Shown piece after piece: positions 1-35,279 of a DNA stretch of 64,000 bases. Position numbers and translations under genes: made by a program. Each line of letters begins with the position of its first letter. Position 1 is the stretch's first letter. The notes below the pieces were generated by a model, which saw only the letters and a list, made by a program, of their open reading frames with translations, did not search any database and was not told the DNA's origin. This DNA comes from Candidatus Forterrea multitransposorum CG_2015-17_Forterrea_25_41. Its GTDB lineage: Archaea; Iainarchaeota; Iainarchaeia; Iainarchaeales; CSSED10-239. The stretch is from assembly GCA_009392915.1 (NCBI GenBank), contig CP045477.1, positions 544,001-608,000 on the forward strand, written 5' to 3'.

Positions 1-153
1 ATAAAAAAACCTTATCAAATTATGTATCAACTTATAAATATTATATATTACAATAAGTTTAAATACATATCATTTTAGATATCAAAATGGATATTAAATA
101 TAAATATCATTCTTTTTCGTCATAAGTTATCTATTGACTTAAAAGGTGATGTT

Positions 154-294
154 ATGTGTAGAGTTATATTTACTCTTCCCAAATATATAAAACAAAAATT
201 AGAAAAAATAGCAAAAGAAAAAAATACAACACAATCTGAATTGATTAGAGCCTCTCTTTATTTGTATTTAGATAAGGAGAGTGATAATAAATGA
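154..294 (+). CDS. Ribbon-helix-helix (CopG/Arc-like) DNA-binding protein, 46 aa (not in the ORF track)
   Basis: Translation is MCRVIFTLPKYIKQKLEKIAKEKNTTQSELIRASLYLYLDKESDNK: a beta-strand (VIFTLP) followed by two helices, the classic RHH pattern. A GGTGAT Shine-Dalgarno sits 5 nt upstream of the ATG at 154. The stop TGA overlaps the next ATG (ATGA at 291-294). Confidence 0.6.
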   Translation: MCRVIFTLPKYIKQKLEKIAKEKNTTQSELIRASLYLYLDKESDNK

Positions 295-923
295 TATTCT
301 CAAAAGCACATAAAACATATACTAGTTGGTTAAAATCAGCTAGTAAAACAAGATATACATTTAAAATCATTAGAAAACATTCAATATTTCCTAACTATAA
401 CTTAAAACAATTAAGAAATACTAAACTAAGTGGTTATTTTCTTAATAAAACAAATTGGAATAATTTAACTAATATTCAAAAAGCTAATAGAAAACAAGTA
501 ACAAACGCACTTAGACAAATAAGAAAGGGCTATTCATTAAAAGATGTTGTTAAAATTAATGGAATTAACAAAGAAACAATACAAAAACACTTAGGAAATT
601 ATCTATTCAAAAGAAAAGGCAAATGGCAAGTAAGAAAAACAGATAGATTACAACTAAAACTAATGATTTTTGAAAAAAGAATGTGTGCAAGAACAATAAT
701 TACTACAAATTCTAAAGATAGACAATTAATTGGTAAATATTTTGCTAATGTTAAACTAGCTCTTAGAGAAAATAACCCTTATTATCTAAAACAATTCAAA
801 AATAAGAAAATAATTGATGCTTATGGAAAAGCACATCATTTTGAAACAGATTTAGATAGATTAAAAATGTGTGAAGAAGCTATAGAAGAGCCAGAATATT
901 TGGAAATATATAGAAATAGATGA
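291..923 (+). CDS. Hypothetical protein with a putative HTH segment, element-encoded
   Basis: 210 aa and basic. An HTH-like stretch (SLKDVVKINGINKETIQKHL) is present. It is translationally coupled to the upstream RHH gene. Function unknown; a terminal-protein role is only speculation. Confidence 0.4.
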   Translation: MIFSKAHKTYTSWLKSASKTRYTFKIIRKHSIFPNYNLKQLRNTKLSGYFLNKTNWNNLTNIQKANRKQVTNALRQIRKGYSLKDVVKINGINKETIQKHLGNYLFKRKGKWQVRKTDRLQLKLMIFEKRMCARTIITTNSKDRQLIGKYFANVKLALRENNPYYLKQFKNKKIIDAYGKAHHFETDLDRLKMCEEAIEEPEYLEIYRNR

Positions 924-927
924 TATT

Positions 928-1248
928 ATGACTGAACAAATAGGCAGTGGTCTTTCTTGTTATCTTTGTGGAGAAGACCATCCAGCAGTAATTAAGAAAT
1001 TAGAATTACATCATATTGATGGTAAAGCTAATTCAAATACCACTGTTGCTATTTGTCAAAATTGTCATAATAAAATTACTTGTGAACAAAATAAACTATC
1101 TCCTAAATTGAGATCTAATAAAAATAAAGATTCTTTGATCAAGTTAGGTTATCAATTATTAAGTCACGGGGCTTTATTGAAGACTTTAGGAGAAACACAA
1201 ATAAAAATTGGAAAAGAGATGATTGAATATGAAAAAAATAATACTTAG
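928..1248 (+). CDS. HNH endonuclease
   Basis: Motifs CYLCGEDHP...LHHIDG...N...CQNCHNKI give two Cys pairs plus HH-N-H, an HNH zinc-finger nuclease signature. Its 3' end overlaps the PolB start. Confidence 0.6.
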   Translation: MTEQIGSGLSCYLCGEDHPAVIKKLELHHIDGKANSNTTVAICQNCHNKITCEQNKLSPKLRSNKNKDSLIKLGYQLLSHGALLKTLGETQIKIGKEMIEYEKNNT

Positions 1249-2791
1249 AGCATTTGCTAATGTTAATACAAATAAGAAAGACTATACTACAGAAATTAAA
1301 AAACATAGAAGAGTTTTAGTATTTGATACTGAAACAACTACTGATGAATATCAAAACCTTAAGATAGGGTTCTTTCAGGTTTATCAAGATAATATTAAGG
1401 TAAATGAAGGTTTATTCTATATAAATGACTTACCTAATGAAGATATTAAGGTTCTACAAAAATATTCTAGAACCTACCCTACCTCACTATATACCTTAGA
1501 TAAATTTAAAGATATATTCTATAAAGAAGTGTATAATAGAGGTACGTTATGTATTGGTTATAATCTAGCTTTTGATATATCTAGAATAGCTCAAAAATAT
1601 GGATATTCTAGAAAATATAATAAGGGTGGGTTTACATTTACTTTATCTAAGGATATAAACAAACCTCCTATAATTATTAAAAAATTAGGTGATGCTAATA
1701 CTTTTAAATTTCAAAGAAATATTGCTAATAAAGGTAAATCTTACAAAAGTGGTTATTTTTTAGATGTTCAAACAATATCTAAAATAATATTAGATAAGAG
1801 AAGGATTAGTTTAGATAAATCCTGTGAAATATTAAATACAACAACTAAAAAAATGAAAAATATCACACATGGAAAAATAACTAAACTTTATATTGATTAT
1901 TTAATTACTGATGTGAAGTCTACATTTGAAGTATATTTAGAATTATTAAAAGAATTTAAAAAATATGATATTGATATTCCATTAGAAAAAACATATAGTT
2001 CAGCATCTCTAGGTAAACAAGCATTAGCTCAATTAGGAATAAAATCTTTTTTTAATTGTAATCCGAATTTTAGTAAAGAATTAATCGGAATTATAATGTC
2101 TACTTATTATGGTGGAAGATGTGAATGTGTTTATAGAAAAAAACCAGTTAAAATTGATTATCTTGATTTTACTTCAATGTATCCTACTATTACCTTATTA
2201 TATGGTATTTGGGACTTTATAATTGCAGAACAAATAACTACTGAAGATGTTACTGATGAAATAAAAAATTTAGTTGAGAATATAGATTTAGAAAGTTTAA
2301 AAAATAAAGAATTATTTAGACAATTTAATGTACTTGTGAAAATTAAACCAAACAAAGATTTATTGCCAATTAGATTTGATTATAAAAACAAAAATGAAAA
2401 TAATAACTTAGGATTAAATTATCTTACAAGTGATAAAGAATTATGGTATACTTTACCGGATATAATTTCATCAAAAATACTAACTGGAAAAGCACCTCAA
2501 ATACTTGAAGCTATTAGATTTAAACCCAATGGAATACAAAGTGATCTTAAAAAATCTAAAATTGTTGGAGTAAATATAAACCCTAAGAAAGAAAATTTAA
2601 TTAAAATTTGTGTAGATAAAAGACAAGAAATTAAAAAAGAGATAAAAGAGTTAAAAAAAGATGATTTAGAATCTAAAAGACTTGATGGTATTCAGAGAGC
2701 CCTTAAAATTTTAGTTAATACTTTTAGTTATGGTATATTTATTGAATTAAATCCTAAAGAGGTAAAAAATAACATTAAATTTATGGTTTAA
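1223..2791 (+). CDS. Protein-primed family B DNA polymerase, N-terminal part (3'-5' exonuclease plus pol motifs A and B)
   Basis: Exo I is VLVFDTETTTDEY (DxE). Exo II is YNLAFDISRI. Exo III is YIDYLITDV (Yx3D). A YxGG-like motif is YYGGRCE. Motif A is LDFTSMYPT (DxxSxYPS). Motif B is KILVNTFSYGIF (Kx3NSxYG). The ORF stops shortly after motif B. Confidence 0.7.
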   Translation: MNMKKIILRAFANVNTNKKDYTTEIKKHRRVLVFDTETTTDEYQNLKIGFFQVYQDNIKVNEGLFYINDLPNEDIKVLQKYSRTYPTSLYTLDKFKDIFYKEVYNRGTLCIGYNLAFDISRIAQKYGYSRKYNKGGFTFTLSKDINKPPIIIKKLGDANTFKFQRNIANKGKSYKSGYFLDVQTISKIILDKRRISLDKSCEILNTTTKKMKNITHGKITKLYIDYLITDVKSTFEVYLELLKEFKKYDIDIPLEKTYSSASLGKQALAQLGIKSFFNCNPNFSKELIGIIMSTYYGGRCECVYRKKPVKIDYLDFTSMYPTITLLYGIWDFIIAEQITTEDVTDEIKNLVENIDLESLKNKELFRQFNVLVKIKPNKDLLPIRFDYKNKNENNNLGLNYLTSDKELWYTLPDIISSKILTGKAPQILEAIRFKPNGIQSDLKKSKIVGVNINPKKENLIKICVDKRQEIKKEIKELKKDDLESKRLDGIQRALKILVNTFSYGIFIELNPKEVKNNIKFMV

Positions 2792-3804
2792 ATGAATTTT
2801 CTTCTGATGTAAAACATATAGAAAATATTGGTAAATATTTCAATCCTATATTAGGCACGATAATAACCTCAGGAGCAAGATTATTTTTAGCTATAGCTCA
2901 ATCAATTACAGAAAAACAAGGGTATAAGCACGTTTATATGGATACAGACAGTATTTTAGTTCCTATTGAGGTATCTAGTAAGGTAATAAATTATTTTAAA
3001 CCTTTAAATCCTTATTCTTCAGATATAGCTTTACTTAAAAAAGAGAAAGAAGATGTATGTTTCTATGGTATTTGTAGTAAAAGATATTGTTTATATAATT
3101 TTAAAAATAAAAAAATTGAACTTATGGATTATAAATTACATGGTTTAGGGCATCTTATTAATCCTTGGAGTAATAAAAAGGATTGGCATAAGGATGTTTG
3201 GTTAGATATATTGAATTTACATTATAATTATATTACATCAGCAGAAATTTATGAAAAATATTCTGTAGTTTATGGAATATCTAGATTTACAGTATCTACT
3301 CCACATTTAATTAAGAGATTTAATACAATTAATAATGATAGACCTTATGAAGAACAAATTAAACCATCTAATTTTTTTTATTTAGGGTTTTCTGTAAATA
3401 AGAATAATTCTGTAAAACCATTAGTGCCTTTTGGAGGAAATCCTCAAAAGTTGGTTTATGATGAATTTATTGATTATAATACTGGAAAGGTAATGCAAGG
3501 TTGTGAGTATTGGAAACCTTTAGGAAATACAATCTTAGAGTATATTGATCATTCAGAGTATAAGTTAGATGGGGGTATTGGGCAATTAGAAAGAAAACAT
3601 ATTGTTTGTAATGATATTCAGTATATAGGAAAAGAAGCAAACAATATTGATGAAGAAGCTATATCTTCTTTTAAACCTATTGAGTATAAGAACAATAATC
3701 AGTTTAAGAAGGATCTTAGGTCATTGAATAATAAGGAGTTGATGCAAAAGTACCATTTCAAGACTAGGAGTCACATCAAGTATTGGAGAGATAAATTATT
3801 CTAA
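2779..3804 (+). CDS. Protein-primed family B DNA polymerase, C-terminal part (Tx2GR, motif C, KxY). It lies in the -1 frame relative to the N-terminal part.
   Basis: The frame is open from 2779: IYWLNEFSSDVKHIENIGKYFNPILGTIITSGARLFLAIAQSITEKQGYKHVYMDTDSILV. ITSGAR is the Tx2G/AR motif of protein-priming PolBs. YMDTDSI is motif C (YxDTDS). KRYCLY is KxY-like. The two parts together would give about 860 aa. The first ATG is at 2938. Confidence 0.65.
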   Translation: MYGLNEFSSDVKHIENIGKYFNPILGTIITSGARLFLAIAQSITEKQGYKHVYMDTDSILVPIEVSSKVINYFKPLNPYSSDIALLKKEKEDVCFYGICSKRYCLYNFKNKKIELMDYKLHGLGHLINPWSNKKDWHKDVWLDILNLHYNYITSAEIYEKYSVVYGISRFTVSTPHLIKRFNTINNDRPYEEQIKPSNFFYLGFSVNKNNSVKPLVPFGGNPQKLVYDEFIDYNTGKVMQGCEYWKPLGNTILEYIDHSEYKLDGGIGQLERKHIVCNDIQYIGKEANNIDEEAISSFKPIEYKNNNQFKKDLRSLNNKELMQKYHFKTRSHIKYWRDKLF

Positions 3805-5013
3805 CGATTCATATTCATAGCAATGTTTTTTTTTAGTATTTTTAATAACTAATCTTTTATCCATATCTTTATAAACTTCAGGAGGCATAAAAGTATTTTT
3901 ACCAAAAGTTACAAAATTATATTTAGTCATATCCTTAATATCTGTTTTTAAAACACCTATAATAAATGATAATTTTTGTTTAGTTTTATAATATAAAGTC
4001 CAACAAGTAAATTTATTTTTAATTAAAATATCATCTTTTTTACCATTTGAAAAAGCGCAATAAATACCAAAATCAAAATTATCCCAACCTAAAAATCTTT
4101 GGACATAATTTTTATTAGATTTTTTAAATTCAATGTATTTCTTAAATATTTCAATACCAAAATTACATTTTTGAAATGAATTTAATTTTAAAATTTGTTC
4201 AATAAATAAATAATCATCTTGCGATTCACACTTTTCTAATTGAAATATTAAGTCATCTATAAATACACTATATTTTTCATTATTCTTTTTAATATCTAGT
4301 TGATTTTTTAAAAACTCTTTATAATTAAATTCATCAAATAATATTAAACTCGCATCAACCCACTTTTTTGTAAGTTCAGCAATACCGTCTTTATTTTGTA
4401 AGTAAATACCTAATATATTTCTTTCTGAATCTAATAAATTATTTTTATTTATGATTAGTTCTCTTTTATCTAAATAATCTATGAAGTCAACAGGTGTGTG
4501 TATATAATTTATAATTTCATTTATTTCTGTATAATTAAAAATATGTGGCATTATTTTAATATTTGATGATTCTTTTTGTGTAATTGATAACAATCCTTTA
4601 TTTGCTAATTCATAATTTCCATTATTAATAACAACACCATAGATTTTCTTAATTTTTTTAAAATTACTATTTGTTAATTTTATATTTTCATTAAATTTAT
4701 TTTTAATATTCACATGAATTTTATTTTCTTTGATTCTATTTATACTTGCACGTAATTGTTTTGTTGGATTGTATATAGCTTTTTGTATATATCTTTTATC
4801 GATAATATCATGTATTTTTGTTTTTATTTGAATAATTATAGCAACATCATTTAATAAAATAATGAAATCGCATAACTCTTTATTATTTTCTAATTGTGGA
4901 TTTGGAAAAACAAAATATTTATGAAAAATAGGTTGTAAAATATTATTATATATTTTTTCTTCAAAAGAATCTTTAAAGTTATAATTATTATTCATAAATA
5001 AATAATATTGCAA
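3796..5013 (-). CDS. Hypothetical protein with a possible PD-(D/E)xK / NERD-like nuclease motif
   Basis: 405 aa. The N-terminal segment CDFIILLNDVAIIIQIKTK resembles a D...(E/Q)xK restriction-endonuclease-fold core. The rest is unassignable by eye. Confidence 0.3.
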   Translation of the reverse strand: MQYYLFMNNNYNFKDSFEEKIYNNILQPIFHKYFVFPNPQLENNKELCDFIILLNDVAIIIQIKTKIHDIIDKRYIQKAIYNPTKQLRASINRIKENKIHVNIKNKFNENIKLTNSNFKKIKKIYGVVINNGNYELANKGLLSITQKESSNIKIMPHIFNYTEINEIINYIHTPVDFIDYLDKRELIINKNNLLDSERNILGIYLQNKDGIAELTKKWVDASLILFDEFNYKEFLKNQLDIKKNNEKYSVFIDDLIFQLEKCESQDDYLFIEQILKLNSFQKCNFGIEIFKKYIEFKKSNKNYVQRFLGWDNFDFGIYCAFSNGKKDDILIKNKFTCWTLYYKTKQKLSFIIGVLKTDIKDMTKYNFVTFGKNTFMPPEVYKDMDKRLVIKNTKKKHCYEYESLE

Positions 5014-5126
5014 AATATGTATAAATATTACTATTAGAACAAACGTACAAAAATAATTAGATATATATAACCCGGCTTCTTTTTATTATTTTATTTTCAC
5101 TCTTTGAAAGTTTTTTATTCTTTTCT

Positions 5127-5423
5127 ATGAATAAAGATTACAACAATTACATTATTTCAGTAATAGGAGGATTAACAACTGGTTTTATAATTATTATAAT
5201 TCCAGAATTATTAAAAGTTATATTTGATAAAAATATAAAACTATTTATTAAAATTATTTTTCTAATTGGGATGATATTATTTTTAATATGGAGTTTATTG
5301 TTTGTAGGAAATAAATTCTTTTTAAAACAAAAAAAACGTACTAAAGAATTAAACAAATTAATAATAACAAGTATTATATTTATTCTTATTAATATTATAT
5401 TAGAGTGCTTAATAAATCTGTAA
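5127..5423 (+). CDS. Small hydrophobic membrane protein (hypothetical)
   Basis: 98 aa with two or three predicted TM helices. It is preferred over the antisense 69-aa ORF because it is longer and more hydrophobic. Confidence 0.3.
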   Translation: MNKDYNNYIISVIGGLTTGFIIIIIPELLKVIFDKNIKLFIKIIFLIGMILFLIWSLLFVGNKFFLKQKKRTKELNKLIITSIIFILINIILECLINL

Positions 5424-5508
5424 TTATTATTTTTTTATTAAATTAACATAAATTATAAAAAAACATTTTTATTTAAAAAAATAATTTTTATATTTAATAA
5501 AATAAAAA

Positions 5509-6387
5509 TTAATGATAATGCACAGATAACGTTAAAACTCCCGCTTCTTTATATTCACCACGATAATTTTTTACATGCCCATGATAATGATATTTAAAAT
5601 TACATTTCTTTTTTAAATCATATATATTAATTGATCCTAAATTGTAAAACGTAATACCAGGACAGTGAGATACAAAAATTGTTTTATTACTAAAATAAGT
5701 TCTAAAAAAATCAATTCGTTTTTTATCCATTCTCAAACTATTATCAATTGAAGAAATATATTTTTCTTTACCAGATTTATCAGAATTAACTCCTGTTAAA
5801 TATAAATCTTTATTTAAATATATTAGTTCTAAATCCATAGGATTATAAAAATTAGGGTTATTTATAATTTTATAAATTATTGGAATATTATTAAAATAAT
5901 TATTTAATTCCATTAAATCTCCATTAAAAAATGAACCCATAATATATTTTCTTTGAGGAAAAGCCAATATACTATCGTGATTTCCAGAATAAAATAATAT
6001 TCTTATGTCTTTTTTAACACAATAATTTTCAAAATCAATAAAATTATCAATCTCATTTTTATTTTTAGAATAAATTAATTCAGATAGTAAATTACCAAAA
6101 TCTTCTGAAGTAATATTAAGTAAATTATTTTTATTTTTGTTTAAATAATCATACACTTGAAATTCATTCCAATAAGATTTTAAAAAAGAAAAAATATCTC
6201 CTAAAAACACAACTAATTTAATTTTTTTAGCACATAAAATTTTAATTAACTTTTTTTTTATTATTAAAGAAAATCTTTCAATATCTGATATAAAATAAAT
6301 TTCATCTAATTCAATATCTTTATTAAATAAACGATGAAAATCAAATTTTATATTAATTAAATTAGGCACTATTTTTTTATCCTTCAA
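5509..6387 (-). CDS. Calcineurin-like metallophosphoesterase
   Basis: Ordered MPE motifs: DxH-like (FDFHRLF), GD (FLGDIFS), GNHD (YSGNHDS), GH (HYHGHV). Confidence 0.6.
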   Translation of the reverse strand: MKDKKIVPNLINIKFDFHRLFNKDIELDEIYFISDIERFSLIIKKKLIKILCAKKIKLVVFLGDIFSFLKSYWNEFQVYDYLNKNKNNLLNITSEDFGNLLSELIYSKNKNEIDNFIDFENYCVKKDIRILFYSGNHDSILAFPQRKYIMGSFFNGDLMELNNYFNNIPIIYKIINNPNFYNPMDLELIYLNKDLYLTGVNSDKSGKEKYISSIDNSLRMDKKRIDFFRTYFSNKTIFVSHCPGITFYNLGSINIYDLKKKCNFKYHYHGHVKNYRGEYKEAGVLTLSVHYH

Positions 6388-6438
6388 TATTTATCTCCCC
6401 TATATACTTATTCACATTAAACAATATATTCAAAAATA

Positions 6439-7047
6439 TTATTTATAAAGTTTTATTCCTTCCAAAAGATCTATTCCAATAGATTTTTTTACTGCAATTT
6501 CCCTTATATATGAAACTATAGATTTATCTAAACAATCCCAATATCCAAATTTATCTATTAAATAAGCAATTAATTGAAAATACATATATTCAAATCTATA
6601 ATCTTCCTCATAATATAATGGGAAATGAATAAAATTATTTCTTTGATTTCCAATTAAATTAAATAAACTTTCGATTAATTCTTTATTTGAATCTTTATTA
6701 TTAATAATATATGAAAATAACTTAAATTTTAATTTACCTAAAGTTCTATTTTTAATTGGTATTTGTAAATAATTTATTGGATCTTTATCAATTAATATTA
6801 TTTTAACTAATCCTTCAACACAAATATTTAACAAAATAATATGAGAAATTTCCTCTGTAGTAGAATCTTCTTTTAATTTTTTATAATTATTTAACAAAAA
6901 TTTAAATTGCTTAAATAAATTAGCTATAAATTTTTGTTTTTTTTCATCTACATCAACTTTATCTAATAATTTACATTCCATAATTAAAGAGAGTTTTTGT
7001 AACTCTTTTAAACGATTATTTAATTCTTTAACCATAATTTCACACAT
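6439..7047 (-). CDS. Hypothetical protein with a HEPN-like Rx4H motif
   Basis: 202 aa, helical. GNQRNNFIHFPLY contains R-x4-H. Nothing else is recognisable. Confidence 0.35.
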   Translation of the reverse strand: MCEIMVKELNNRLKELQKLSLIMECKLLDKVDVDEKKQKFIANLFKQFKFLLNNYKKLKEDSTTEEISHIILLNICVEGLVKIILIDKDPINYLQIPIKNRTLGKLKFKLFSYIINNKDSNKELIESLFNLIGNQRNNFIHFPLYYEEDYRFEYMYFQLIAYLIDKFGYWDCLDKSIVSYIREIAVKKSIGIDLLEGIKLYK

Positions 7048-7065
7048 TTATTTTATAAATTTAAT

Positions 7066-7935
7066 TTATTTAATTAAATCAGATATTTTAACACTTAACA
7101 CATAACCAATTCTTGAAAGGTCTTTTGTTTCAATATTAATTACTCTTAAATTATTGTTTTCTAAAATCTTATTTTTATTTGCATATCTTTTTATTTCTTT
7201 ATTTCTTTTTTCTTCATTTAATGAATTTAATCCTCCATTAAATTCAATATAAATATCTTCTTTAGGTAAATAAAAATCAATTAATCTATATTCTGCTTTA
7301 TCACCTTTTAAAAAATCAACATAATATTCAGGAATATACCTAATTTTTAATTCTTGCAGAGAAAGTGCAACTAATTTTTCTCCTTCACTCCTAGTTTTCA
7401 AATAATTTTCTTTATTAATAGTTTTTAATTTTTTTTTATTAATATCTAATAACCAATTTACATACCATTGATAGGTATCCCATTGATCCCATTTTTCTCC
7501 TGCATAAAAATGTTTAGATTCATTATCTTTTCTATAATAAAATCTTCTCCAATCATGAGGAGTAGTTTTTATAATAAATGTAGTTTGTTTATCTTTTTTA
7601 ATATAAACATCCTCTTTATTAACTACTAAATGTTTCATATGATTAGGAAACATTTTTTCAGAACCTGGTTTTTCAATATTTGGATCATATCCACAAGCTA
7701 AATGAAAATGAATAGTAACTTTATTTATTTTTATATTTGCACAAAATTTTTTATCATCAATAATTACACAGTATGGTTCTGAAGGAAACCAATCTTTAAC
7801 CATATCTTGAAAAATTTCGGATGCTTTAGAATATTGACAATCTTTCTTAAATTTATCATATTTTTTTTTATCATACCTAGCATTAATTAATCTTTCTGAA
7901 TTTGTTAATTTGTAATCCTTTAATAAATAACTCAT
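7066..7935 (-). CDS. Hypothetical protein with a C-terminal DUF559/Vsr-like (PD-(D/E)xK) endonuclease-like segment
   Basis: C-terminal RLIDFYLPKEDIYIEFNGGLN...RNKEIKRYANKNKILENNNLRVINIE resembles the D...IExDG core of DUF559/very-short-patch-repair-like domains. N-terminal 200 aa unknown. Confidence 0.35.
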   Translation of the reverse strand: MSYLLKDYKLTNSERLINARYDKKKYDKFKKDCQYSKASEIFQDMVKDWFPSEPYCVIIDDKKFCANIKINKVTIHFHLACGYDPNIEKPGSEKMFPNHMKHLVVNKEDVYIKKDKQTTFIIKTTPHDWRRFYYRKDNESKHFYAGEKWDQWDTYQWYVNWLLDINKKKLKTINKENYLKTRSEGEKLVALSLQELKIRYIPEYYVDFLKGDKAEYRLIDFYLPKEDIYIEFNGGLNSLNEEKRNKEIKRYANKNKILENNNLRVINIETKDLSRIGYVLSVKISDLIK

Positions 7936-7945
7936 AATAACCCTC

Positions 7946-8515
7946 TTATCTTTTTTTAAAATTTCTTTTTCTTGAATGATTAAATTTAGAATTCTTATTA
8001 AAGCGACTAGATAAATTAGAAGGCTGTCTTTTAAAAGATCTAAATTTATTTACTTTTCTCTTTAAATAATGTGTAATTGTATAATATTTAATAAAATTTA
8101 AAATAATTATTGCAATTAAAATATAAATTAATAATTCTAAAATTAAAGAAAATAATGAAAAATCACTTAAATTAAGTATTATTTTTACAAATAAACCAAT
8201 AATAGGAATTAATAATAAACTAATATAAATTTCAATTAAAAAAAATCTATTTTTCGAATCTAATAAATACAGTCCACGTAACAGATTTTTGATAAAACTA
8301 ATAATTGTTTTAATAATTACAATAAATATAACTATTAAAGAAATAGAAAAATAAATTGTTTTTTTTATTTCACTAAGATTTGAAGATTTTATTAAAATAT
8401 TAATTAAAATAAAAAAAATCAATGTTGAGCAATAATATAAAAGGTTATTTTTATTTTCATTCCAAAAACGATGCCAAATATCTTTATGTAAAAAACTTTT
8501 ATGTTTTTTAATCAT
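7946..8515 (-). CDS. Polytopic membrane protein with a basic C-terminal tail (hypothetical)
   Basis: Four or five hydrophobic helices, then an R/K-rich tail. Confidence 0.35.
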   Translation of the reverse strand: MIKKHKSFLHKDIWHRFWNENKNNLLYYCSTLIFFILINILIKSSNLSEIKKTIYFSISLIVIFIVIIKTIISFIKNLLRGLYLLDSKNRFFLIEIYISLLLIPIIGLFVKIILNLSDFSLFSLILELLIYILIAIIILNFIKYYTITHYLKRKVNKFRSFKRQPSNLSSRFNKNSKFNHSRKRNFKKR

Positions 8516-8793
8516 ATATATTAAATTAATCCATTTATTTATAAATCTATTTAATTATATAAATTATTAAAATTAATATAAAATTTATTAATTAATTTAA
8601 TTTTATTTATAAGCTAATATATATTTCGAAAATCAGTATAATATTTATAAAAATACTACAAAAACTATATATTCTATAATAAATAACATTAAATCTCTTT
8701 TTAGGTATTAATAAAAATAAGAAAATAAATTATTTTTTTAAAGAAGGAATAATTTATTTTTCAAATTATTTATTTACATTTAGTATGTTTATT

Positions 8794-8964
8794 TTATTTT
8801 TTATGAGAAAATAAACCCCAAACTAAAAATATTACAAACAATACTACAAATATATAGAATAACACTAATGCAATGTTAGTTGCAACATCTGAAATTCTTC
8901 CAAAACCAAAAATTGCAGAAATTATTGCTATTACTAAAAATATAATTGCCCATCTAAGAAACAT
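8794..8964 (-). CDS. DUF1328/UPF0391-family small membrane protein, 56 aa (not in the ORF track)
   Basis: The reverse complement translates to MFLRWAIIFLVIAIISAIFGFGRISDVATNIALVLFYIFVVLFVIFLVWGLFSHKK. The start (MFLRWAIIFLVIA...FGFG) matches the conserved N-terminus of UPF0391 proteins. Confidence 0.55.
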   Translation of the reverse strand: MFLRWAIIFLVIAIISAIFGFGRISDVATNIALVLFYIFVVLFVIFLVWGLFSHKK

Positions 8965-9166
8965 ATAACATCACCTTCATATATTATAGTTGAAATATCT
9001 TATAAAGAGGTGTAATTAGCAGTTATACCTTAAATTACTAATATAAATGAATTAATAAATATAATTACTGAACATTTATTTATAAAAAACCTCTAAATAA
9101 AAATGTTTTGTTACTTAAATATATTATAACTAATTTTTTAAAAAAATAATTAATAAAGAAACACAT

Positions 9167-9913
9167 ATGCTTGAAATATATTTATACACACTAATCAGTA
9201 TCTTATTTGTAAGCCTAATATCATTAATAGGAATATTAACTTTATTTACAAATAAAAAACATCTCTCAAAAATGCTTTTATTCTTAATCAGTTTTTCTGC
9301 AGGTGCACTTTTAGGAGATGCATTTATACACTTAATACCAGAAAGCTTTGAAAGTTTTAATCCTCTAGTTATATCTTTTTCAATAATTGCAGGAATCTTA
9401 ATCTTCTTTATTCTAGAAAAAATAATACATTGGAGACACTGTCATATGCCAACTTCTAAAGAACACATTCACCCTTTAGGAAAAATGAACCTTATAGGAG
9501 ATATATTTCATAATTTTTTAGATGGTATTATTATAGCTACAAGTTATATTGTTTCAATTCCTTTAGGAATAGCAACAACAATTGCAGTTTTATTACACGA
9601 AATACCTCAAGAGATTGGAGATTTTGGTGTTTTGATATATGCAGGATATTCAAGAAAAAAAGCATTAATCCTTAATTTTTTAATATCTTTAACAGCAGTT
9701 ATTGGAGGAATCATAGGAATTGTTTTAAGTAAATATATTTCAGCTTTTTCAAGCATTATGATTGCATTTACTGCAGGTGGGTTTATTTATATTGGAGCAT
9801 CAGATTTAATACCTGAACTTAAGAAAGAAACAAGTATTAAAAAGACAACCATACAGATATTAGGTATAATATTAGGAATTGCTTTAATGGCATTATTAAT
9901 ATTTATGGAATGA
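9167..9913 (+). CDS. zupT: ZIP-family zinc transporter (ZupT-like)
   Basis: ZIP signature HEIPQEIGDFGVL, His-rich motifs and about 8 TM helices. Confidence 0.8.
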   Translation: MLEIYLYTLISILFVSLISLIGILTLFTNKKHLSKMLLFLISFSAGALLGDAFIHLIPESFESFNPLVISFSIIAGILIFFILEKIIHWRHCHMPTSKEHIHPLGKMNLIGDIFHNFLDGIIIATSYIVSIPLGIATTIAVLLHEIPQEIGDFGVLIYAGYSRKKALILNFLISLTAVIGGIIGIVLSKYISAFSSIMIAFTAGGFIYIGASDLIPELKKETSIKKTTIQILGIILGIALMALLIFME

Positions 9914-9919
9914 TATTTT

Positions 9920-10441
9920 ATGGATAAAAAGACAGACAAATTATTATATAATATTGTAATATTTTTACTAATTTTTGCATTAGTAATAAGTATTGTATTT
10001 ACTTTTGAAAGATTATTTTTAGAAAAACCAATTAATGAGTGTAATAATGTTTATCAAAAAAACTACATGAATGATAAATGTGAATATGATCAAGAAAATG
10101 TTGATACTTGTTATGCAAAAGAAGGAACAGTAATTTATAAAAGTGATTGTTCTATTGAGTGTGATTATTGTTATAAAGAATATAATAATAAATTAGAAAA
10201 TTATAATAATAATGCAAATCTTTTAAGAATAATATTATCATTTATTATAGCATTATCTTTGACATTAATAAATATTAAAGATAAAATAATTAAATATGCT
10301 TTACTTTCAGGAAGTTTAGTTTCATTATTTGTTGCAACATTAATGGCAATGAAGTTTATTGGAAGTTTACTTCCAATTGTAATTATTCTTGAATTTATTT
10401 TAGTACTTATAATTTATAAAAAAACAAAAGAGGAGAAATAA
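9920..10441 (+). CDS. Membrane-anchored Cys-rich protein (hypothetical)
   Basis: N- and C-terminal TM helices flank a Cys-rich extracytoplasmic segment (CxYDQENVDTCY...CSIECDYCY). Confidence 0.35.
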   Translation: MDKKTDKLLYNIVIFLLIFALVISIVFTFERLFLEKPINECNNVYQKNYMNDKCEYDQENVDTCYAKEGTVIYKSDCSIECDYCYKEYNNKLENYNNNANLLRIILSFIIALSLTLINIKDKIIKYALLSGSLVSLFVATLMAMKFIGSLLPIVIILEFILVLIIYKKTKEEK

Positions 10442-10442
10442 T

Positions 10443-10655
10443 ATGAGTGATAAAAAAACATCAGTTGAAATTGCTGGAACAGTTGGAGCATTTACTGTTG
10501 CAATTGCTGCAATTATTGTAATATTTGCAAGAGAATATTCTTGGGTAATAATATTTACAACATTAATTCTTTGTTTCTTTGGTATTGTTATGGCAAAAGA
10601 AAAAAATATTAACAATACTGAAAAACCAATTCAGAAAAAGAAAAAATCTAAATGA
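10443..10655 (+). CDS. Small membrane protein (hypothetical)
   Basis: 70 aa with two TM helices. Its ATG overlaps the upstream stop (ATATGA). Confidence 0.3.
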   Translation: MSDKKTSVEIAGTVGAFTVAIAAIIVIFAREYSWVIIFTTLILCFFGIVMAKEKNINNTEKPIQKKKKSK

Positions 10656-11370
10656 TTAGTTTGGCTCTATTTTCTCTGAGCCATTTACTTTTTTCTTTAT
10701 GATCTGGAACAAATTTTTCAACTAATTTCCAGAATCTCTTAGAATGATTATGATGAATAGTGTGACAAAGTTCATGAATAATCACATAATCAATCACATC
10801 TTTTCTTGCAAGCAAAAGAGAAGTTGAAAAAACTAGTTTTTTATCATAAGAACAAGAACCAAACTTTGAAATATTGTTCTTTAAAGAAATAGATTTAATA
10901 TTTTGCTTAAAATAAAGATCATTAAAGAAGTTAACTTTATCTTTAAGTAAAGGTAAAAGTTCTTTTGAAAGAATTTTTCCAATTAACTTTGAAATTATTT
11001 TATCTTCATTTAAAAGATTATCTGGAATCTTTAAAATAATTTGGTTCTCTTTAATTTTTGCAAGAGAAGTTTTTCTGTTTTCTTTTTGAATTGTTAATAT
11101 ATATTTTCTATCAAAAATTTCAATAATCTCACCAGAAACATATTTCCTTGAAGAAATTGGAGCATATTTTTCAGGATCTTTTTTTAAATAATCAATCAAT
11201 TTTAATTTCATATTATTTATCTGCTCTTCTCTTGCCTTTTCTGAAAAAAACTTAGGGACCCTTATGTTTATGTTCCTACCAATAGACATATATGTTGATC
11301 TTCTTCTTTCAACATATATTTTTAATAAATATTCTTTATTATTAAAAATTAGTTTTTCTTCTCTTAACAT
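10648..11370 (-). CDS. YgjP/DUF45-family zinc metallohydrolase (M48-like)
   Basis: HELCHTIHHNHSKRFWKLVEKFVPD matches the DUF45 HExxH...NHS..FW signature. Confidence 0.7.
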   Translation of the reverse strand: MLREEKLIFNNKEYLLKIYVERRRSTYMSIGRNINIRVPKFFSEKAREEQINNMKLKLIDYLKKDPEKYAPISSRKYVSGEIIEIFDRKYILTIQKENRKTSLAKIKENQIILKIPDNLLNEDKIISKLIGKILSKELLPLLKDKVNFFNDLYFKQNIKSISLKNNISKFGSCSYDKKLVFSTSLLLARKDVIDYVIIHELCHTIHHNHSKRFWKLVEKFVPDHKEKSKWLRENRAKLII

Positions 11371-11402
11371 ATTTAAAACAATCTTTCTATTTTAAAAAGA
11401 AT

Positions 11403-12779
11403 ATGCTACAAATATTTTATATAGATATCTTAAAAAAAAGAATAATTATGGAAAATATAATAGATAGAGTAAAACCTTTAAATAACTTTAAAGAAATAAA
11501 AGATAAACAAGAGATTGTTTACTGGATGACAAGAGAACAAAGAGTTGAAGATAACTACTCTCTTTTATTTGCAGACTATCTTTCAAAAAAACATAACTGT
11601 AAACTAAAAGTAATATTTACTTTAGTAGAAAAGTTTCTAGAATCACAAGAAAAACAATTTATCTTTATGCTTGAAGGTTTAAAAGAAGTTGAAGAAAAGC
11701 TTAATAACCTAGGAATTGAATTTATTATTTTAAAAGGAAAAGAACCTTTTAAAGAAATAACAAATTATATTAATAAAAATAAAATATCTGCACTAGTTAC
11801 AGATTTAGATCCATTAAAAATAAAGGTTAAATGGAGAGAAGAAGTATTAAAAGAAATAAAAATACCTTTTTTTATGGTAGATTCACATAATATAGTGCCT
11901 ATTGAAATTGCATCTAAAAAACAAGAGTATGCAGCATATACTCTAAGACCAAAAATTAATCATTTACTTGGAAGTTATTTAAAAGAAATTCCAAAGATTA
12001 AAAAAAGAGAACAAAAAACAGATTATAAAAATGATTTTAAAAAATTAATTAAAGAAAAACAAGATTATTCTTTTATTTCTGGAGAAAAAGCTTCTAGAAA
12101 AATATTAAAAGACTTTATTGAAAATAAACTTAACGATTATTCAACATTAAGAAACGATCCTTCAAGAAACTTTCAATCAAATCTTTCACCTTATCTTCAT
12201 TTTGGACAAATTTCTTCACAAAGAATAGCTTTAGAAGTTTTAAAATCAGAAAAAAACGAAGAAAGTAAGAAAGCTTTTTTAGAAGAACTAATTGTTAGAA
12301 AAGAATTGTCTGATAATTATTGTTATTATAACAAAGATTATGATAACTATAATGGTTTTCCTGATTGGGCAAAAAGAACTATAGAAGAACATAAGGATGA
12401 TAAAAGAGAATATCTCTATTCACTTAAAGAACTACAAGACTCTAAAACACATGACATCTTATGGAATTCATGTCAAAAAGAAATGGTATTGACAGGTAAA
12501 ATGCATGGTTACCTAAGAATGTATTGGGCAAAAAAGATTTTAGAATGGACAAAAGATATTAAAGAAGCTCAAGAATTTGCAATATTTTTAAATGATAAAT
12601 ATAGTTTAGATGGAAGAGATGCTAATGGATATACAGGGATTGCTTGGTCTCTTGGCGGGGTACATGATAGAGCATGGAATGAAAGAAGTATTTTTGGAAA
12701 AATAAGATTTATGAGTTTTAATTCAACTTCTAAAAAATTTAATCTTAAAGGATATTTAGAAAAAATAGAAAAAATATAG
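11403..12779 (+). CDS. phr: Class II CPD photolyase (deoxyribodipyrimidine photo-lyase)
   Basis: VYWMTREQRVEDNYSLLFA matches the class II N-terminus. The C-terminal FAD-binding region is MHGYLRMYWAKKILEW...GRDANGYTGIAWSLGGVHDRAWNERSIFGKIRFMS. The likely real start is the internal Met at 11448 (MENIIDRVK). Confidence 0.85.
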   Translation: MLQIFYIDILKKRIIMENIIDRVKPLNNFKEIKDKQEIVYWMTREQRVEDNYSLLFADYLSKKHNCKLKVIFTLVEKFLESQEKQFIFMLEGLKEVEEKLNNLGIEFIILKGKEPFKEITNYINKNKISALVTDLDPLKIKVKWREEVLKEIKIPFFMVDSHNIVPIEIASKKQEYAAYTLRPKINHLLGSYLKEIPKIKKREQKTDYKNDFKKLIKEKQDYSFISGEKASRKILKDFIENKLNDYSTLRNDPSRNFQSNLSPYLHFGQISSQRIALEVLKSEKNEESKKAFLEELIVRKELSDNYCYYNKDYDNYNGFPDWAKRTIEEHKDDKREYLYSLKELQDSKTHDILWNSCQKEMVLTGKMHGYLRMYWAKKILEWTKDIKEAQEFAIFLNDKYSLDGRDANGYTGIAWSLGGVHDRAWNERSIFGKIRFMSFNSTSKKFNLKGYLEKIEKI

Positions 12780-12801
12780 TTTTTAAAAAAAAATAAAAAA
12801 A

Positions 12802-13488
12802 CTATTCGTATTCAAGCATAAAATAATCTCCTTCACAAGAATTATTAACCATATCTCCTGTTGAAGAACAAACTGTACTATTATCATCTAAATAAAAACA
12901 ATCAACTGAACCATTAAAAGTATTAGTGTCTTTTTTATCAAGATAATCTAAAAGAGATTGAGGTGTTTCAAAATAACAAGTACCTTCAGTTCCAATATCT
13001 TCTTTTGAAACCATACTTTCATTAAAATCATTTTCACCTATAATTTCAATATTTATATCATAAAGAGAAAGATTTACTTTACAATAGATATATTCAATAC
13101 CATTTATTGTATATTCTGTAGTTCTTGTAAAAGATTTATTTTCAGTAGTTATTACATCTGTAAATAAAAATCTTGATCCTGATTTACATTCTGCAGCATA
13201 TTGTTTAAAACAATTTAAGTTTGTTCCACAATTTTCTGGATTTTCAATTTCTATAATTTCAATAATATTTAAATCTTCTGGAGAAACAATATTTTCATCT
13301 TCTAAAAGATTAGAATCAATATTTAAATCTATTAAATCATCTTCTAAAGAATTATTAATAGAGTCTTTATTTGTTTTTACAAAAACAAAAAGCACTATTA
13401 ATACTAAAATAATTACAATTATAATTATATATAACCATAAAAATTTTGATTTTTTAGATACTTTCTCTAAAGTAGTATTTTCATCCAT
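12802..13488 (-). CDS. N-terminally membrane-anchored Cys-rich acidic protein (hypothetical)
   Basis: A TM helix at residues about 18-38, then an acidic, Cys-containing domain. Confidence 0.35.
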   Translation of the reverse strand: MDENTTLEKVSKKSKFLWLYIIIIVIILVLIVLFVFVKTNKDSINNSLEDDLIDLNIDSNLLEDENIVSPEDLNIIEIIEIENPENCGTNLNCFKQYAAECKSGSRFLFTDVITTENKSFTRTTEYTINGIEYIYCKVNLSLYDINIEIIGENDFNESMVSKEDIGTEGTCYFETPQSLLDYLDKKDTNTFNGSVDCFYLDDNSTVCSSTGDMVNNSCEGDYFMLEYE

Positions 13489-13544
13489 AATTAATCAAAT
13501 AATATATATTATAAGATATTTATACACACATAACATTTAAAAAC

Positions 13545-14675
13545 TTATATTTTATGAGTATATACTTTATTAATATAATTATAGATTATTTTTGATTTAG
13601 AAGAATCTATTCCTTGTATTTTTGAAATATCAGATAAATTTAAACTTTTAATAGTTTTTAATGAATTTTGAGAATTAATTAAACTATTAATAGTTTTTTC
13701 ATCTATTTCTGTTATTTTAGAAAAAAATCTATAACCTCTAGGGAAATCAAATTCTTTTTGAGAAGTAAAATTTGAAAGTTCTAAGATATCTATTAACTTT
13801 TCTGTATCTGCAATTTTTCTAATACCTAGTTGTTTTAGAAAATTTATTTTTTCTAAACATTCTTCTTTTAGATATATATTGTTAGAATAATCTTTTAAAA
13901 TTAAATATAATTCTTCTTCAAGACCATATGTAATTTCATAAAAAGAATTAGAAATATCTTGACCTTGAGAACCAAGCTCTACTATTAAATCATCAACTTG
14001 AGTTTCATTTTTGAAAAAATATAAAATATTCTGTATTAAATCTAAAACTTCTGTTTTTAGATTATTTGATAAAATAATTTCTAAATCATATAAATTTTTA
14101 ATTTTTTTATCAATCTTTGATCTAAAATCTTTTAAATTGTTAATTGCATAACTTGCTTTTACCATTAAAATATTAAAATCTTGTAAAACATATTTTTGAT
14201 CTTTATAATAAAGAGAAATAACATTTCTTCTATGTGAAATTGCAATAACAGGTAAATCAGATTGCATTGCTGTTTGTTCAGCTGATCGATGTCTCATTCC
14301 TGTCTCTTTTGAAGAAATATCTCTATCTGGCATTAAATGTTTATTTGCACCTACAATCTTTGTTAAATCATTTGAAAGAACTATAGCTCCATCCATTTTT
14401 GAAAGTTCAAAAAGCTTTTGAGAAGAAAAAGGAATATCTAAATCAATTCCTCCTTTTAAAATAGGTTTTAACTTATCTGAATCACCTAAAACTATTAAAG
14501 CACCTAAGTTACCATGTAAAATTTCATCCAAACCACTCCTTAATTCTGTTCCAGGAGTTACAAGAGGGAGTATTTTAGTAATATCAATAACATCATTTTC
14601 ATGTATTTGACTGATTAATTTTGATTGAAAATCTTCTTCTTGAATAAAAACTTTTTTTTTTGGTCTTGTAGGCAT
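13545..14675 (-). CDS. DisA/DacZ-like diadenylate cyclase (c-di-AMP synthase, DAC domain)
   Basis: DAC motifs GALIVLGD, DGAIVLS, KHLMPDRD...ETGMRHRSAEQTA...LPVIAISHRRNVISLYY. The RHR motif and ISLYY closely match DisA-type DAC domains. Confidence 0.7.
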   Translation of the reverse strand: MPTRPKKKVFIQEEDFQSKLISQIHENDVIDITKILPLVTPGTELRSGLDEILHGNLGALIVLGDSDKLKPILKGGIDLDIPFSSQKLFELSKMDGAIVLSNDLTKIVGANKHLMPDRDISSKETGMRHRSAEQTAMQSDLPVIAISHRRNVISLYYKDQKYVLQDFNILMVKASYAINNLKDFRSKIDKKIKNLYDLEIILSNNLKTEVLDLIQNILYFFKNETQVDDLIVELGSQGQDISNSFYEITYGLEEELYLILKDYSNNIYLKEECLEKINFLKQLGIRKIADTEKLIDILELSNFTSQKEFDFPRGYRFFSKITEIDEKTINSLINSQNSLKTIKSLNLSDISKIQGIDSSKSKIIYNYINKVYTHKI

Positions 14676-14851
14676 AATAATCTTTTCCTTTTTTTATAAA
14701 AATAGTCAATTTATAAATCTATGATATTATAGTTATACAAATTGTTTATAAAGATAATGTGTTAGAATAACTTTGTTTTATGGTAAAATATTTAAAAAAT
14801 AATATTTTTAAATGAATTGGATAAATATAAAAATATTAACCGGTGTAAAAA

Positions 14852-15223
14852 ATGAAAATATTAATCTTTTCTGAAAAAGAGTTTTTTAAAGAACTTGGAC
14901 CAATAAGGCATTCTCTTACAAAGCATACTGGTATTTTTCAAACAACAGAGATTGGTAGGATTAACAAAGGGCTTTGTAAAGAGAAGATCATCCTTGATAA
15001 AGATATACAATTACTAAAAGAAGTAAATGCACTCTTAGTCTGTAACTTTAAGAAAGGAAAAGAAGAAAACCATGTTGGAGCTAATTCTTTATTAATTATG
15101 GCAATTGCCTATTCTCTTGGAAAAAAGATATATTTATTAGATGATATCCCTAATAAATATGTAGAAACATTAAAAAGTTTAGAAGTTAATCCTCTTAAGG
15201 GAGATTTAAAAAAAATAATGTGA
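14852..15223 (+). CDS. Hypothetical protein
   Basis: 123 aa. A GGTG SD sits 8 nt upstream of the ATG. No confident family. Confidence 0.35.
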   Translation: MKILIFSEKEFFKELGPIRHSLTKHTGIFQTTEIGRINKGLCKEKIILDKDIQLLKEVNALLVCNFKKGKEENHVGANSLLIMAIAYSLGKKIYLLDDIPNKYVETLKSLEVNPLKGDLKKIM

Positions 15224-35190: not shown

Positions 35191-35279
35191 ATCTTTATCC
35201 ACTTTTTTTACTTTTTTAGATTTTATTATTTTTTTAGATTTAATTTTTTTAACTTCTTTTTTCATAAATATCTTTTCTC

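Follow-up and report, generated by a model that had tools for sequence, protein, structure and literature searches.

Two overlapping ORFs in a 64,000-nt stretch of archaeal DNA (hereafter the window) are very probably a family-2-type casposon polymerase gene from which one base pair has been lost, a lesion that is probably recent and fixed and would leave the element unable to copy itself. The element belongs to a known class, and its polymerase is an ordinary, recently disabled member of that class. The host is a very AT-rich uncultured archaeon (23% G+C), whose nearest named relatives are probably Woesearchaeota and Iainarchaeum MAGs, as judged by a single marker gene and by the homologue that is closest to the polymerase.

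Two ORFs and One Family B Polymerase

An earlier note on this DNA had described two consecutive plus-strand ORFs which together carry nine motifs of family B DNA polymerases (PolB). Both were found (1223/1229–2791, and a frame open at 2779–3804), and all nine motifs are present in the order that was claimed.

1229..2791, plus strand: N-terminal ORF of PolB, 520 aa, codon phase 2
2779..3804, plus strand: C-terminal part of PolB, -1 frame, codon phase 1, 341 codons
2777..2782, plus strand: lesion site AAATTT, placed by stop-codon map, protein alignment, and DNA comparison with the related locus L002

The N-terminal ORF likely starts at ATG 1229 (TTG 1223 is the alternative in the ORF listing). 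It contains Exo I–III, YxGG, and motif A, followed by ~90 inserted aa at the TPR1 position and then by the fingers and motif B, and terminates with FMV and a stop codon past the frame change. The C-terminal part contains Tx2GR, motif C, KxY, the thumb, and a three-helix (HTH-like) C-terminal end. The first start codon in this downstream frame is ATG 2938, the Met of YMDTDS, which is why annotators have called an ORF of 288 aa.

The fused translation (858 aa) could be aligned end to end with intact homologues of 853–862 aa (60–62% identity). In residues of the fused protein, the motifs are FDTETT (32–37), YNLAFD (111–116), YIDYLITD (221–228), YYGGR (293–297), DFTSMYPT (313–320), KILVNTFSYG (493–502), ITSGAR (545–550), YMDTDS (570–575), and KRY (618–620), and every one of them occupies columns which are invariant when the family is aligned. 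There is no gap at the junction (marked by a slash), where NIKF/YGLNEF corresponds to EQKIYGLNEF of the homologue P0003 and to a family consensus of IxVYGLxxF. The fused PolB is also 47–54% identical to polymerases of ~890 aa from Methanococcoides, Methanolobus, and Methanosarcina genomes. On this alignment evidence the two ORFs are halves of one family B polymerase of ~858 aa, and the earlier proposal of a single polymerase with a -1 frame change agrees well with the collinear, gapless fusion.

The exact 520-aa sequence has been deposited as NCBI NCP71962.1 and under other accessions, annotated as "hypothetical protein [archaeon]". The two deposited "hypothetical proteins" (e.g., GW835_01030 and GW835_01025) are the halves of one casposon polymerase gene, for which a pseudogene annotation is appropriate.

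Position and Occurrence of the Frame Change

The shift had previously been placed around the A6 run at 2764–2769. This site was ruled out because the downstream frame has TAA codons at 2770–2772 and 2776–2778, and therefore both frames are jointly open only at 2779–2788. In the DNA comparison, AAA ATA TAT GGT TTA AAT GAA TTT of L002 stands against AAA TT- TAT GGT TTA AAT GAA TTT of the window; by this comparison, one base is missing in the codon (for an I/V/F residue) which precedes Tyr519, within AAATTT at 2777–2782. According to the secondary structure in a model of P0002, an intact homologue with 61% identity to the fused PolB, the lesion falls in a beta-hairpin insertion at the TPR2 position, between motif B and Tx2GR.

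The exact 520-aa product was detected on 39 contigs and in 88 index blocks, which come from JGI, ENA, Logan, and NCBI, the 288-aa product on 38 contigs, and the glutamyl-tRNA synthetase (GluRS) of the host on 42. One of these sources, L001, is a separate assembly which differs from the window by one SNP over their overlap (1–4273) and has the same split. This SNP (2726 A/G, Ser500Gly in motif B) is the only polymorphism seen and hints at relaxed constraint, though it is a single site. The lesion appears to be fixed in the host population; fixation across all sampled assemblies indicates allele stability only and is not proof of non-function. Among related casposon loci, PolB is found in more than one frame in 20 of 162 (~12%), at scattered positions.

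The Surrounding Casposon

The polymerase gene lies in a complete family-2-type casposon at the 3' end of a tRNA-Thr(UGU) gene. An integrated self-replicating element in an archaeal chromosome had been anticipated in the earlier note, with a casposon among three options, and the search that it advised past the left window edge yielded both a Cas1 casposase and a left terminal inverted repeat (TIR). The features are as follows (negative positions lie to the left of the window).

-3294..5073, no strand: casposon, whole element of 8,368 bp, with 1..5073 inside the window
154..294, plus strand: ribbon-helix-helix (RHH, CopG-like) protein, 46 aa (Pfam RHH_1, E 1.2e-4; PHROG CopG-like repressor, E 4e-7)
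291..923, plus strand: HTH protein conserved among casposons, 210 aa (Pfam HTH_40, a weak match with E 0.002)
928..1248, plus strand: HNH endonuclease, 106 aa (PHROG HNH endonuclease families, best E 7.6e-6)
3796..5013, minus strand: cargo ORF, 399–405 aa, between PolB and the right TIR
5034..5073, minus strand: right TIR, read inwards GGGTTATATATATCTAATTATTTTTGTACGTTTGTTCTAAT
5074..5087, plus strand: right copy of the target-site duplication (TSD), 14 bp, GGCTTCTTTTTATT, an exact direct repeat

The left 3.3 kb of the element, outside the window, was read on L164 (a JGI contig of 663,621 bp, 100% identical to window 1–14995) and on L001. It carries the left TIR, a 239-aa ORF, a membrane ORF of 152 aa, the 393-aa Cas1 casposase, and a 277-aa HTH protein. 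The casposase gene lies 0.8 kb left of the window in both contigs. Its product matches Pfam Cas_Cas1 (E 2e-62), and residues 1–393 align to 18–414 of PDB 6OPM (E 9e-132) with the C-terminal region included; by this alignment, the casposase carries a C-terminal HTH. The 277-aa HTH protein has no Pfam match, and homologues of it occur in nine loci including L002, L003, and L005. The 239-aa ORF by the left TIR was considered as the Eco47II-type restriction enzyme of L003 after loss of its methylase and was rejected, as tblastn revealed no similarity.

Related loci were retrieved with a three-sequence alignment as the query; single-protein queries, with Cas1 run against genomes and the fused PolB against metagenomes, retrieved none. 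Cas1 is present within the flanks of 118 of the 163 related PolB loci, and the order Cas1(-), HTH, HNH, PolB(+) is recurrent. By tblastn, homologues of the 210-aa HTH protein lie directly upstream of HNH-PolB in 67 of 163 loci, and those of the HNH protein, whose ORF overlaps the polymerase start by 20 nt in the window, adjoin PolB in 80. A gene is also present at the position of the RHH gene in L003 and L002. No match to the cargo ORF was found in Pfam, PHROG, or PADLOC, nor was a second copy of PolB or Cas1 seen in the window. Cas1, the ends, and the other genes of the element look intact.

The TIRs are ~40 nt long and imperfect, begin with GGGTTATA, contain TTTTTGTACG, and are identical at 24 of the first 30 nt; the left arm, GGGTTATAGCTATTTCACTTTTTTTGTACGCTTTTTAATC, was aligned to the right arm on L164. 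A blind inverted-repeat search of the left flank against the window returned AT-rich noise only, and the ends were located only once the related element L003 had yielded its own TIR of 57 nt. The left TSD copy is identical (GGCTTCTTTTTATT, -3308..-3295), and on L164 both copies are immediately outside the element ends. The tRNA-Thr(UGU) gene is located at -3378..-3303, and the left TSD overlaps its 3' end. L003, with the TSD GGCTTTCTATTTTT, has the same tRNA-Thr target as the window element, and L002 likewise abuts tRNA-Thr; tRNA-Thr(UGU) is thus a repeated target for a sub-lineage of family-2-like elements. When the empty tRNA-Thr site was sought in sister lineages, whose GluRS is 96% and 85% identical, synteny proved to be broken before the site.

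Possible Explanations for the Split

The deletion truncates the polymerase past motif B, inside the beta-hairpin insertion ahead of Tx2GR. By the explanation that we favor, the 520-aa product would be unable to polymerize because it is without motif C, KxY, and the thumb, and the downstream part has no start codon ahead of the Met of YMDTDS; given both, the element would no longer be self-copying. The lesion is probably recent, since neither half has a second frameshift or stop and both have kept all family-invariant residues. These same two observations would also be in line with a still expressed gene under selection.

A rival explanation is programmed -1 ribosomal frameshifting, which the earlier note had listed among its options. 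A slip on AAA-TTT-A would then supply scarce full-length polymerase and thereby limit its level. A -1 slip on TTT (2780–2782) would yield exactly the family-conserved KFYGLNEF, both halves are otherwise undamaged, and the allele is stable in all assemblies. However, the zero-frame codons are ATT AAA TTT ATG, and the heptamer A_AAT_TTA (2777–2783) is in the wrong phase, with AAT and TTA in the third frame, neither the upstream nor the downstream one; with the codons in their true phase, a slip would leave each of the two tRNAs mispaired at the first position of its codon. Nor is there a sign of downstream RNA structure in the 98 nt at 2783–2880 (MFE -11.2 kcal/mol vs. a shuffle mean of -12.5; z = +0.48). 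P0002 and P0003, the closest relatives, have an uninterrupted ORF, as does every other full-length protein among the 120 homologues that were listed, and the frame changes in the 20 related loci (of 162) are at positions other than that of the window. IS3-family transposases and dnaX, which do use programmed -1 frameshifting, resemble this gene in having two overlapping ORFs whose -1 fusion gives the full-length enzyme, but differ in that the window gene is without an in-phase heptamer, a downstream structure, or conservation of the site in relatives. We therefore consider programmed frameshifting very improbable. A functional split polymerase, whose 520-aa and C-terminal products would be made separately and then assembled, is slightly less probable still. 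Split family B polymerases exist in some methanogens; in the present gene both parts are intact, and the break lies in a surface beta-hairpin insertion and not in a core element (P0002 model). On the other hand, the downstream frame offers no ATG, GTG, or TTG ahead of 2938, and an independent product would therefore begin at the Met of YMDTDS, without Tx2GR and the strand leading into motif C. Moreover, the split is unique to the lineage of the window when compared with the listed homologues and the related loci.

The least probable explanation is that the true gene is intact and that a short homopolymer was misread in sequencing or assembly, although no assembly error is commoner than an indel of one base and the site is within A3T3. 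Assembly error, also among the options of the earlier note, can be set aside because the identical split occurs on 39 contigs from four collections, which represent different samples, assemblers, and archives and include L001 with its one SNP. In addition, 3-base runs are not error-prone, longer runs in the gene (A7, T7, T8) are all in frame, and an intact allele was not seen in a search of a 5.8-billion-cluster protein collection, in which the next match was 61% identical. A more far-reaching reading is unlikely, too, if somewhat less so than these three rivals. It would have the frameshift tolerated or even used, either through a trickle of polymerase from -1 slippage on AAA-TTT-A or in a polymerase-less casposon which has become fixed, with Cas1 and cargo, in a DPANN lineage; separately, it would have the host primase perhaps dispensable for family-2 casposons, whose polymerase is built like protein-primed PolBs (pPolBs). 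A polymerase gene disabled by one deletion thus remains the explanation that we prefer.

Protein-Primed or RNA-Primed Replication

The description of this polymerase as protein-primed in the earlier note is only partly supported. PDB sequence searches matched RNA-primed PolBs only (Pyrobaculum 5MDN, Pfu, KOD, Pol alpha). Tx2GR, which had been taken as diagnostic of protein priming, is not discriminating because the Deep Vent polymerase, which is RNA-primed, has VTAWGR in alignment with ITSGAR. The joined translation matched neither the pPolB profile PF03175 nor the general PolB profile PF00136 (E ≤ 0.1). Of the 11 family members (the fused PolB and 10 homologues), PF00136 matches seven (best E 5e-7), and PF03175 matches five of the aligned sequences (best E 7e-15).

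By fold, pPolBs of phi29, His1, and tectiviruses are matched about as well as RNA-primed PolBs, and the best viral fold matches are the His1 and tectivirus enzymes. Exo I is at residue 33, and therefore the polymerase lacks the N-terminal domain that RNA-primed PolBs have, in which it resembles the PolBs of phi29, His1, tectiviruses, and family 1 casposons; it also has insertions where TPR1 and TPR2 lie in these enzymes. The first (~92 extra residues vs. Pyrobaculum PolB, between motif A and the fingers) is predicted to form an alpha/beta module (residues 333–450 of the P0002 model). The second (~26–35 aa between motif B and Tx2GR; ~26 extra vs. the Deep Vent and Pyrobaculum PolBs) is predicted as four short strands (507–534 of the P0002 model) and matches TPR2 in position. 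Unlike pPolBs, the gene belongs to an integrated, Cas1-mobilized element, and its product has a C-terminal extension of ~240 aa past KxY. None of the genes in the element was recognizable as coding for a terminal protein, those ahead of PolB being the HNH and HTH genes.

Family-2 casposon PolBs have been placed either near archaeal PolB3 (PMC4046053) or in a cluster of their own that is related to both groups (PMC7544198). Our results suggest that this PolB family sits between RNA-primed and protein-primed PolBs. Given the protein-primed-like architecture, family-2 casposons might not depend on the host primase, contrary to a 2014 proposal. The architecture also bears on how these elements prime their replication. 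This point, part of which the literature has already noted, applies to the family as a whole and not to this locus in particular.

Comparison with Family 2 Casposons

To our knowledge, casposons have scarcely been described in DPANN-type hosts. With the present element, a casposon from a DPANN-type archaeon has been delimited in full, down to its two ends, its target duplication, and its tRNA-Thr target.

Family-2 casposons have five core genes, TIRs of 31–59 bp, and 14-bp TSDs with four conserved bases first and an AT-rich end; they target tRNA 3' ends in either orientation (PMC4046053, PMC4779613). In comparison with the casposons AciBoo-C1 and those of Methanosarcina mazei, Methanolobus psychrophilus, and Methanococcoides burtonii (PMC4046053, PMC4779613), the window element shares a Cas1 casposase with a C-terminal HTH, an HNH nuclease, two HTH proteins, and a PolB which has an HTH-like C-terminal end and is ~50% identical to polymerases of Methanosarcinales genomes. 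Cas1 and its neighboring HTH gene are on the strand opposite RHH-HTH-HNH-PolB. The imperfect TIRs of ~40 nt, the 14-bp TSD with conserved bases first and an AT-rich end, and the insertion at the 3' end of a tRNA gene, for which both orientations occur among relatives, are also typical of family 2. On the other hand, the element resides not in a euryarchaeon but in a DPANN-type archaeon of 23% G+C, the target is tRNA-Thr(UGU) instead of tRNA-Leu, tRNA-Pro, or an intergenic site, and there are an extra RHH gene and cargo genes without recognizable function. Motif C also differs, being YMDTDS vs. the CDTDS after which the AciBoo-type cluster of Kazlauskas et al. is named.

Inactivated family-2 casposon copies with stops in PolB have been published (PMC4046053, PMC4779613). 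The present gene has a single frameshift where those have multiple stops, and its lesion offers a clean example of the first step in casposon decay.

Two Reading Frames of One Polymerase Gene

The polymerase-coding region consists of two consecutive plus-strand ORFs, the second in the -1 frame, as seen in both the ORF listing and three-frame translations.

1229 (or 1223) to 2791, plus strand: N-terminal ORF of PolB, 520 (or 522) aa
2779 to 3804, plus strand: open C-terminal frame of PolB, one base behind the upstream frame

All nine polymerase motifs quoted in the earlier note were found in the order given there. The fused translation (1229–2782 joined to 2782–3801) has 858 aa and aligned end to end with the intact homologs P0002 and P0003 (853–862 aa, 60–62% identity); identity to the ~890-aa polymerases of Methanosarcinales, Methanoculleus, and Methanoregula was 47–54%. 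The junction is gapless (NIKF joined to YGLNEF, vs. EQKIYGLNEF in P0003 and the family consensus IxVYGLxxF), and all invariant columns of a 62-sequence alignment are kept in both halves. This collinearity with intact homologs and the retained invariant residues show that the two ORFs are halves of one gene, the single shifted polymerase that had been proposed from sequence inspection.

Nature and Position of the Lesion

The shift had previously been placed around the A6 run at 2764–2769. The stop-codon map rules this site out because the downstream frame contains TAA at 2770–2772 and 2776–2778; both frames are simultaneously open only at 2779–2788. In the closest named relative (L002, a “Candidatus (I)ainarchaeum” MAG), the corresponding DNA reads AAA ATA TAT GGT TTA AAT GAA TTT, versus AAA TT TAT GGT TTA AAT GAA TTT in the window. 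One base has been lost, in the codon of the I/V/F residue preceding Tyr519, within AAATTT at 2777–2782. Longer homopolymers of the same gene (A7, T7, and T8) are all in frame. The frameshift lies inside the hairpin at the TPR2 position.

An assembly error, one of the causes suggested earlier, is contradicted by the recurrence of the split: the exact 520-aa product was detected on 39 contigs and in 88 index blocks (JGI, ENA, Logan, and NCBI), with at least four NCBI accessions labelled “hypothetical protein [archaeon].” The downstream 288-aa product was present on 38 contigs and the host GluRS on 42. A JGI contig of 663,621 bp (L164) is identical to window positions 1–14995, and a separate JGI contig of 7,085 bp (L001), overlapping positions 1–4273, has the same split and a single SNP. 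No intact polymerase allele was found in a 5.8-billion-cluster protein collection, where the next best match was 61% identical. The frameshift is fixed in the DNA of the sampled population, and the lesion is a genuine single-base deletion.

The sole difference between the window and L001 is A/G at 2726, by which Gly replaces the conserved Ser500 of motif B (NTFSYG). A substitution at such a conserved site fits relaxed constraint following the frameshift.

Programmed -1 frameshifting, another explanation offered for the split, is very improbable. The phase of the heptamer A_AAT_TTA is not that of the reading frame, and in the phase actually read a -1 slip would leave both tRNAs mispaired at the first codon position. 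Folding of the downstream 98 nt is no stronger than that of shuffled controls (z = +0.48), none of the homologs listed is split at this place, and in the 20 of 162 other related loci whose polymerase occupies more than one frame the positions are scattered. Separate translation of the second half would yield a product without Tx2GR, since ATG 2938, the Met of YMDTDS, is the first start codon in that frame.

Protein-Primed or RNA-Primed Polymerase

The earlier note took Tx2GR as diagnostic of a protein-primed PolB (pPolB). However, the RNA-primed Deep Vent polymerase has VTAWGR aligned opposite ITSGAR, and the pPolB signature is the pair of subdomains TPR1 and TPR2 (PMC5695915). PDB alignments revealed extra residues at the positions of both, ~92 inserted after motif A and before the fingers, and ~26 inserted after motif B and before Tx2GR. 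Exo I is located at residue 33, and therefore an N-terminal domain is absent, which also points to protein priming. In the BFVD viral library, protein-primed polymerases ranked best, that of His1 at E 1e-15 and that of a tectivirus at E 4e-15. On the other hand, PDB sequence and profile searches returned RNA-primed PolBs only (best, Pyrobaculum 5MDN, E 6.5e-8). The pPolB label is not established. The fused protein matched neither the general PolB profile (PF00136) nor the pPolB profile (PF03175) in the Pfam search; among 11 aligned family sequences these matched seven and five, respectively, and are not discriminating. The A. boonei casposon polymerase has been placed near archaeal PolB3 (Krupovic et al. 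2014, PMC4046053) or in a cluster of its own with ties to both the main PolB group and pPolBs (Kazlauskas et al., PMC7544198). The mixed signals seen here agree with the latter placement.

Gene Content and Relatives of the Element

Contigs reaching left of the window share a fixed gene order. Leftwards from PolB are HNH (106 aa), helix-turn-helix (HTH, 210 aa), and RHH (46 aa) genes, followed on the opposite strand by HTH (277 aa) and Cas1 (393 aa) genes. Cas1 matched Pfam Cas_Cas1 (E 2e-62) and aligned from end to end, C-terminal part included, with PDB 6OPM (E 9e-132), labelled “CRISPR-associated endonuclease Cas1,” which we take to be the Methanosarcina mazei casposase. Of the integrated self-replicating elements envisaged earlier, a casposon is thus the one borne out by Cas1 beyond the left edge.

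Synteny was analyzed by tblastn in 163 loci (L001–L003 from exact protein look-up and 160 found with the polymerase alignment): the arrangement recurs, with Cas1 present in 118 loci, HNH present in 80, and the HTH protein of 210 aa in 67. Their hosts include Methanosarcinales, DPANN, Nitrosopumilaceae, and many bacteria. The loci with multi-frame polymerases (~12%), many from MAGs named “MFD...,” include L135, L141, L142, L146, L147, L149, L150, L152, L153, L155, L156, L159, L160, and L161, among others, with two to four frames; these represent either decayed copies or MAG sequencing errors.

The casposases of this element (L001 803–1984) and a related one (L003 1836–3017) are 89% identical, versus 61% for the polymerases, 64% for the HNH proteins, and 48% for the 277-aa HTH proteins. 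This disparity suggests module exchange between casposons with a common type of terminal inverted repeat (TIR) and tRNA-Thr target.

Many casposon-polymerase contigs end at query residues ~507–554, near motif B (L027, L058, L060, L065, L069, L071, L104, L119, and L121). L119 and L121 are N-terminal halves at both ends of one 23-kb Nitrosotalea contig (JBOGQT010000102.1), pointing inwards. Such ends probably reflect assembly breakage at a conserved repeat.

Element Ends and Target Site

The L003 element has a 57-nt TIR (86% complementary) and a 14-bp target-site duplication (TSD), GGCTTTCTATTTTT, and sits at the 3' end of tRNA-Thr(UGU). Guided by its terminal motif, we placed the right boundary of the element in the window at 5073, between ATATATAACCC and GGCTTCTTTTTATT. 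On L164, the identical 14-mer GGCTTCTTTTTATT comes after tRNA-Thr(UGU) and precedes the left TIR, GGGTTATAGCTATTTCACTTTTTTTGTACG. The TSD is perfect, and 24 of the first 30 nt match between the TIR arms. Negative coordinates lie left of the window:

-3378 to -3303: tRNA-Thr(UGU), read on L164
-3294 to 5073: casposon, 8,368 bp

L002 carries its own related element, which adjoins this tRNA in reverse orientation. Just past the right TSD of L003, positions 8541–8555 (GGGATATAGTTAA) resemble L002 ~4925–4940 after tRNA-Thr (GGGATATAGCTAA), either a conserved attachment-site flank or what is left of a previous tandem element.

Host and Neighborhood

Elsewhere the window has typical cellular genes, for GluRS, TyrRS, Lon, DisA, photolyase, and a ZIP transporter, together with three tRNAs. 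G+C is ~23%. Among named relatives, Woesearchaeota MAGs are nearest in GluRS (~50–55% identity), and an Iainarchaeum MAG is the best match in polymerase and synteny; from these we infer a DPANN-type archaeal host.

Directly right of the casposon, 5074–9100 is an island of 18–20% G+C in which most ORFs lack a family match. It may be a defense island or another mobile-element remnant beside the attachment site.

5509 to 6387: 292-aa ORF, metallophosphoesterase
7066 to 7935: 289-aa ORF, PADLOC PDC-S69 (E 3e-8), HEAT_CxxC_PD-DEXK (E 5e-5)

Outside the casposon, a membrane protein of 189 aa (7946–8515, minus strand) is a paralog of a 152-aa membrane ORF inside it (L001 340–798, minus strand), which adjoins Cas1 (35% identity over 99 aa, E 4e-16). 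Farther away, a 730-aa protein (33073–35265, minus strand) with DUF285 and Listeria-Bacteroides-type repeats (Flg_new) is probably a surface protein.

Comparison with Known Casposons

A single-base deletion very likely disables the polymerase of this family-2-type casposon, which is otherwise intact, has precisely defined limits, and resides in a DPANN-type archaeon. Considering the perfect TSD, the absence of a second lesion, and the conserved residues all being kept, the lesion is probably recent. Family-2 casposons have a five-gene core with an HTH on both Cas1 and PolB, 14-bp TSDs that start with conserved bases and finish AT-rich, TIRs of 31–59 bp, and tRNA 3' ends as targets in either orientation; casposons with a disabled polymerase are known already, as copies inactivated by PolB stops (PMC4046053, PMC4779613). 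The window's element resembles them in gene core, TSD, TIRs, tRNA target, and disabled PolB; what is new is its occurrence in this host group, its use of tRNA-Thr as target, and, across the family, the pPolB-like architecture.
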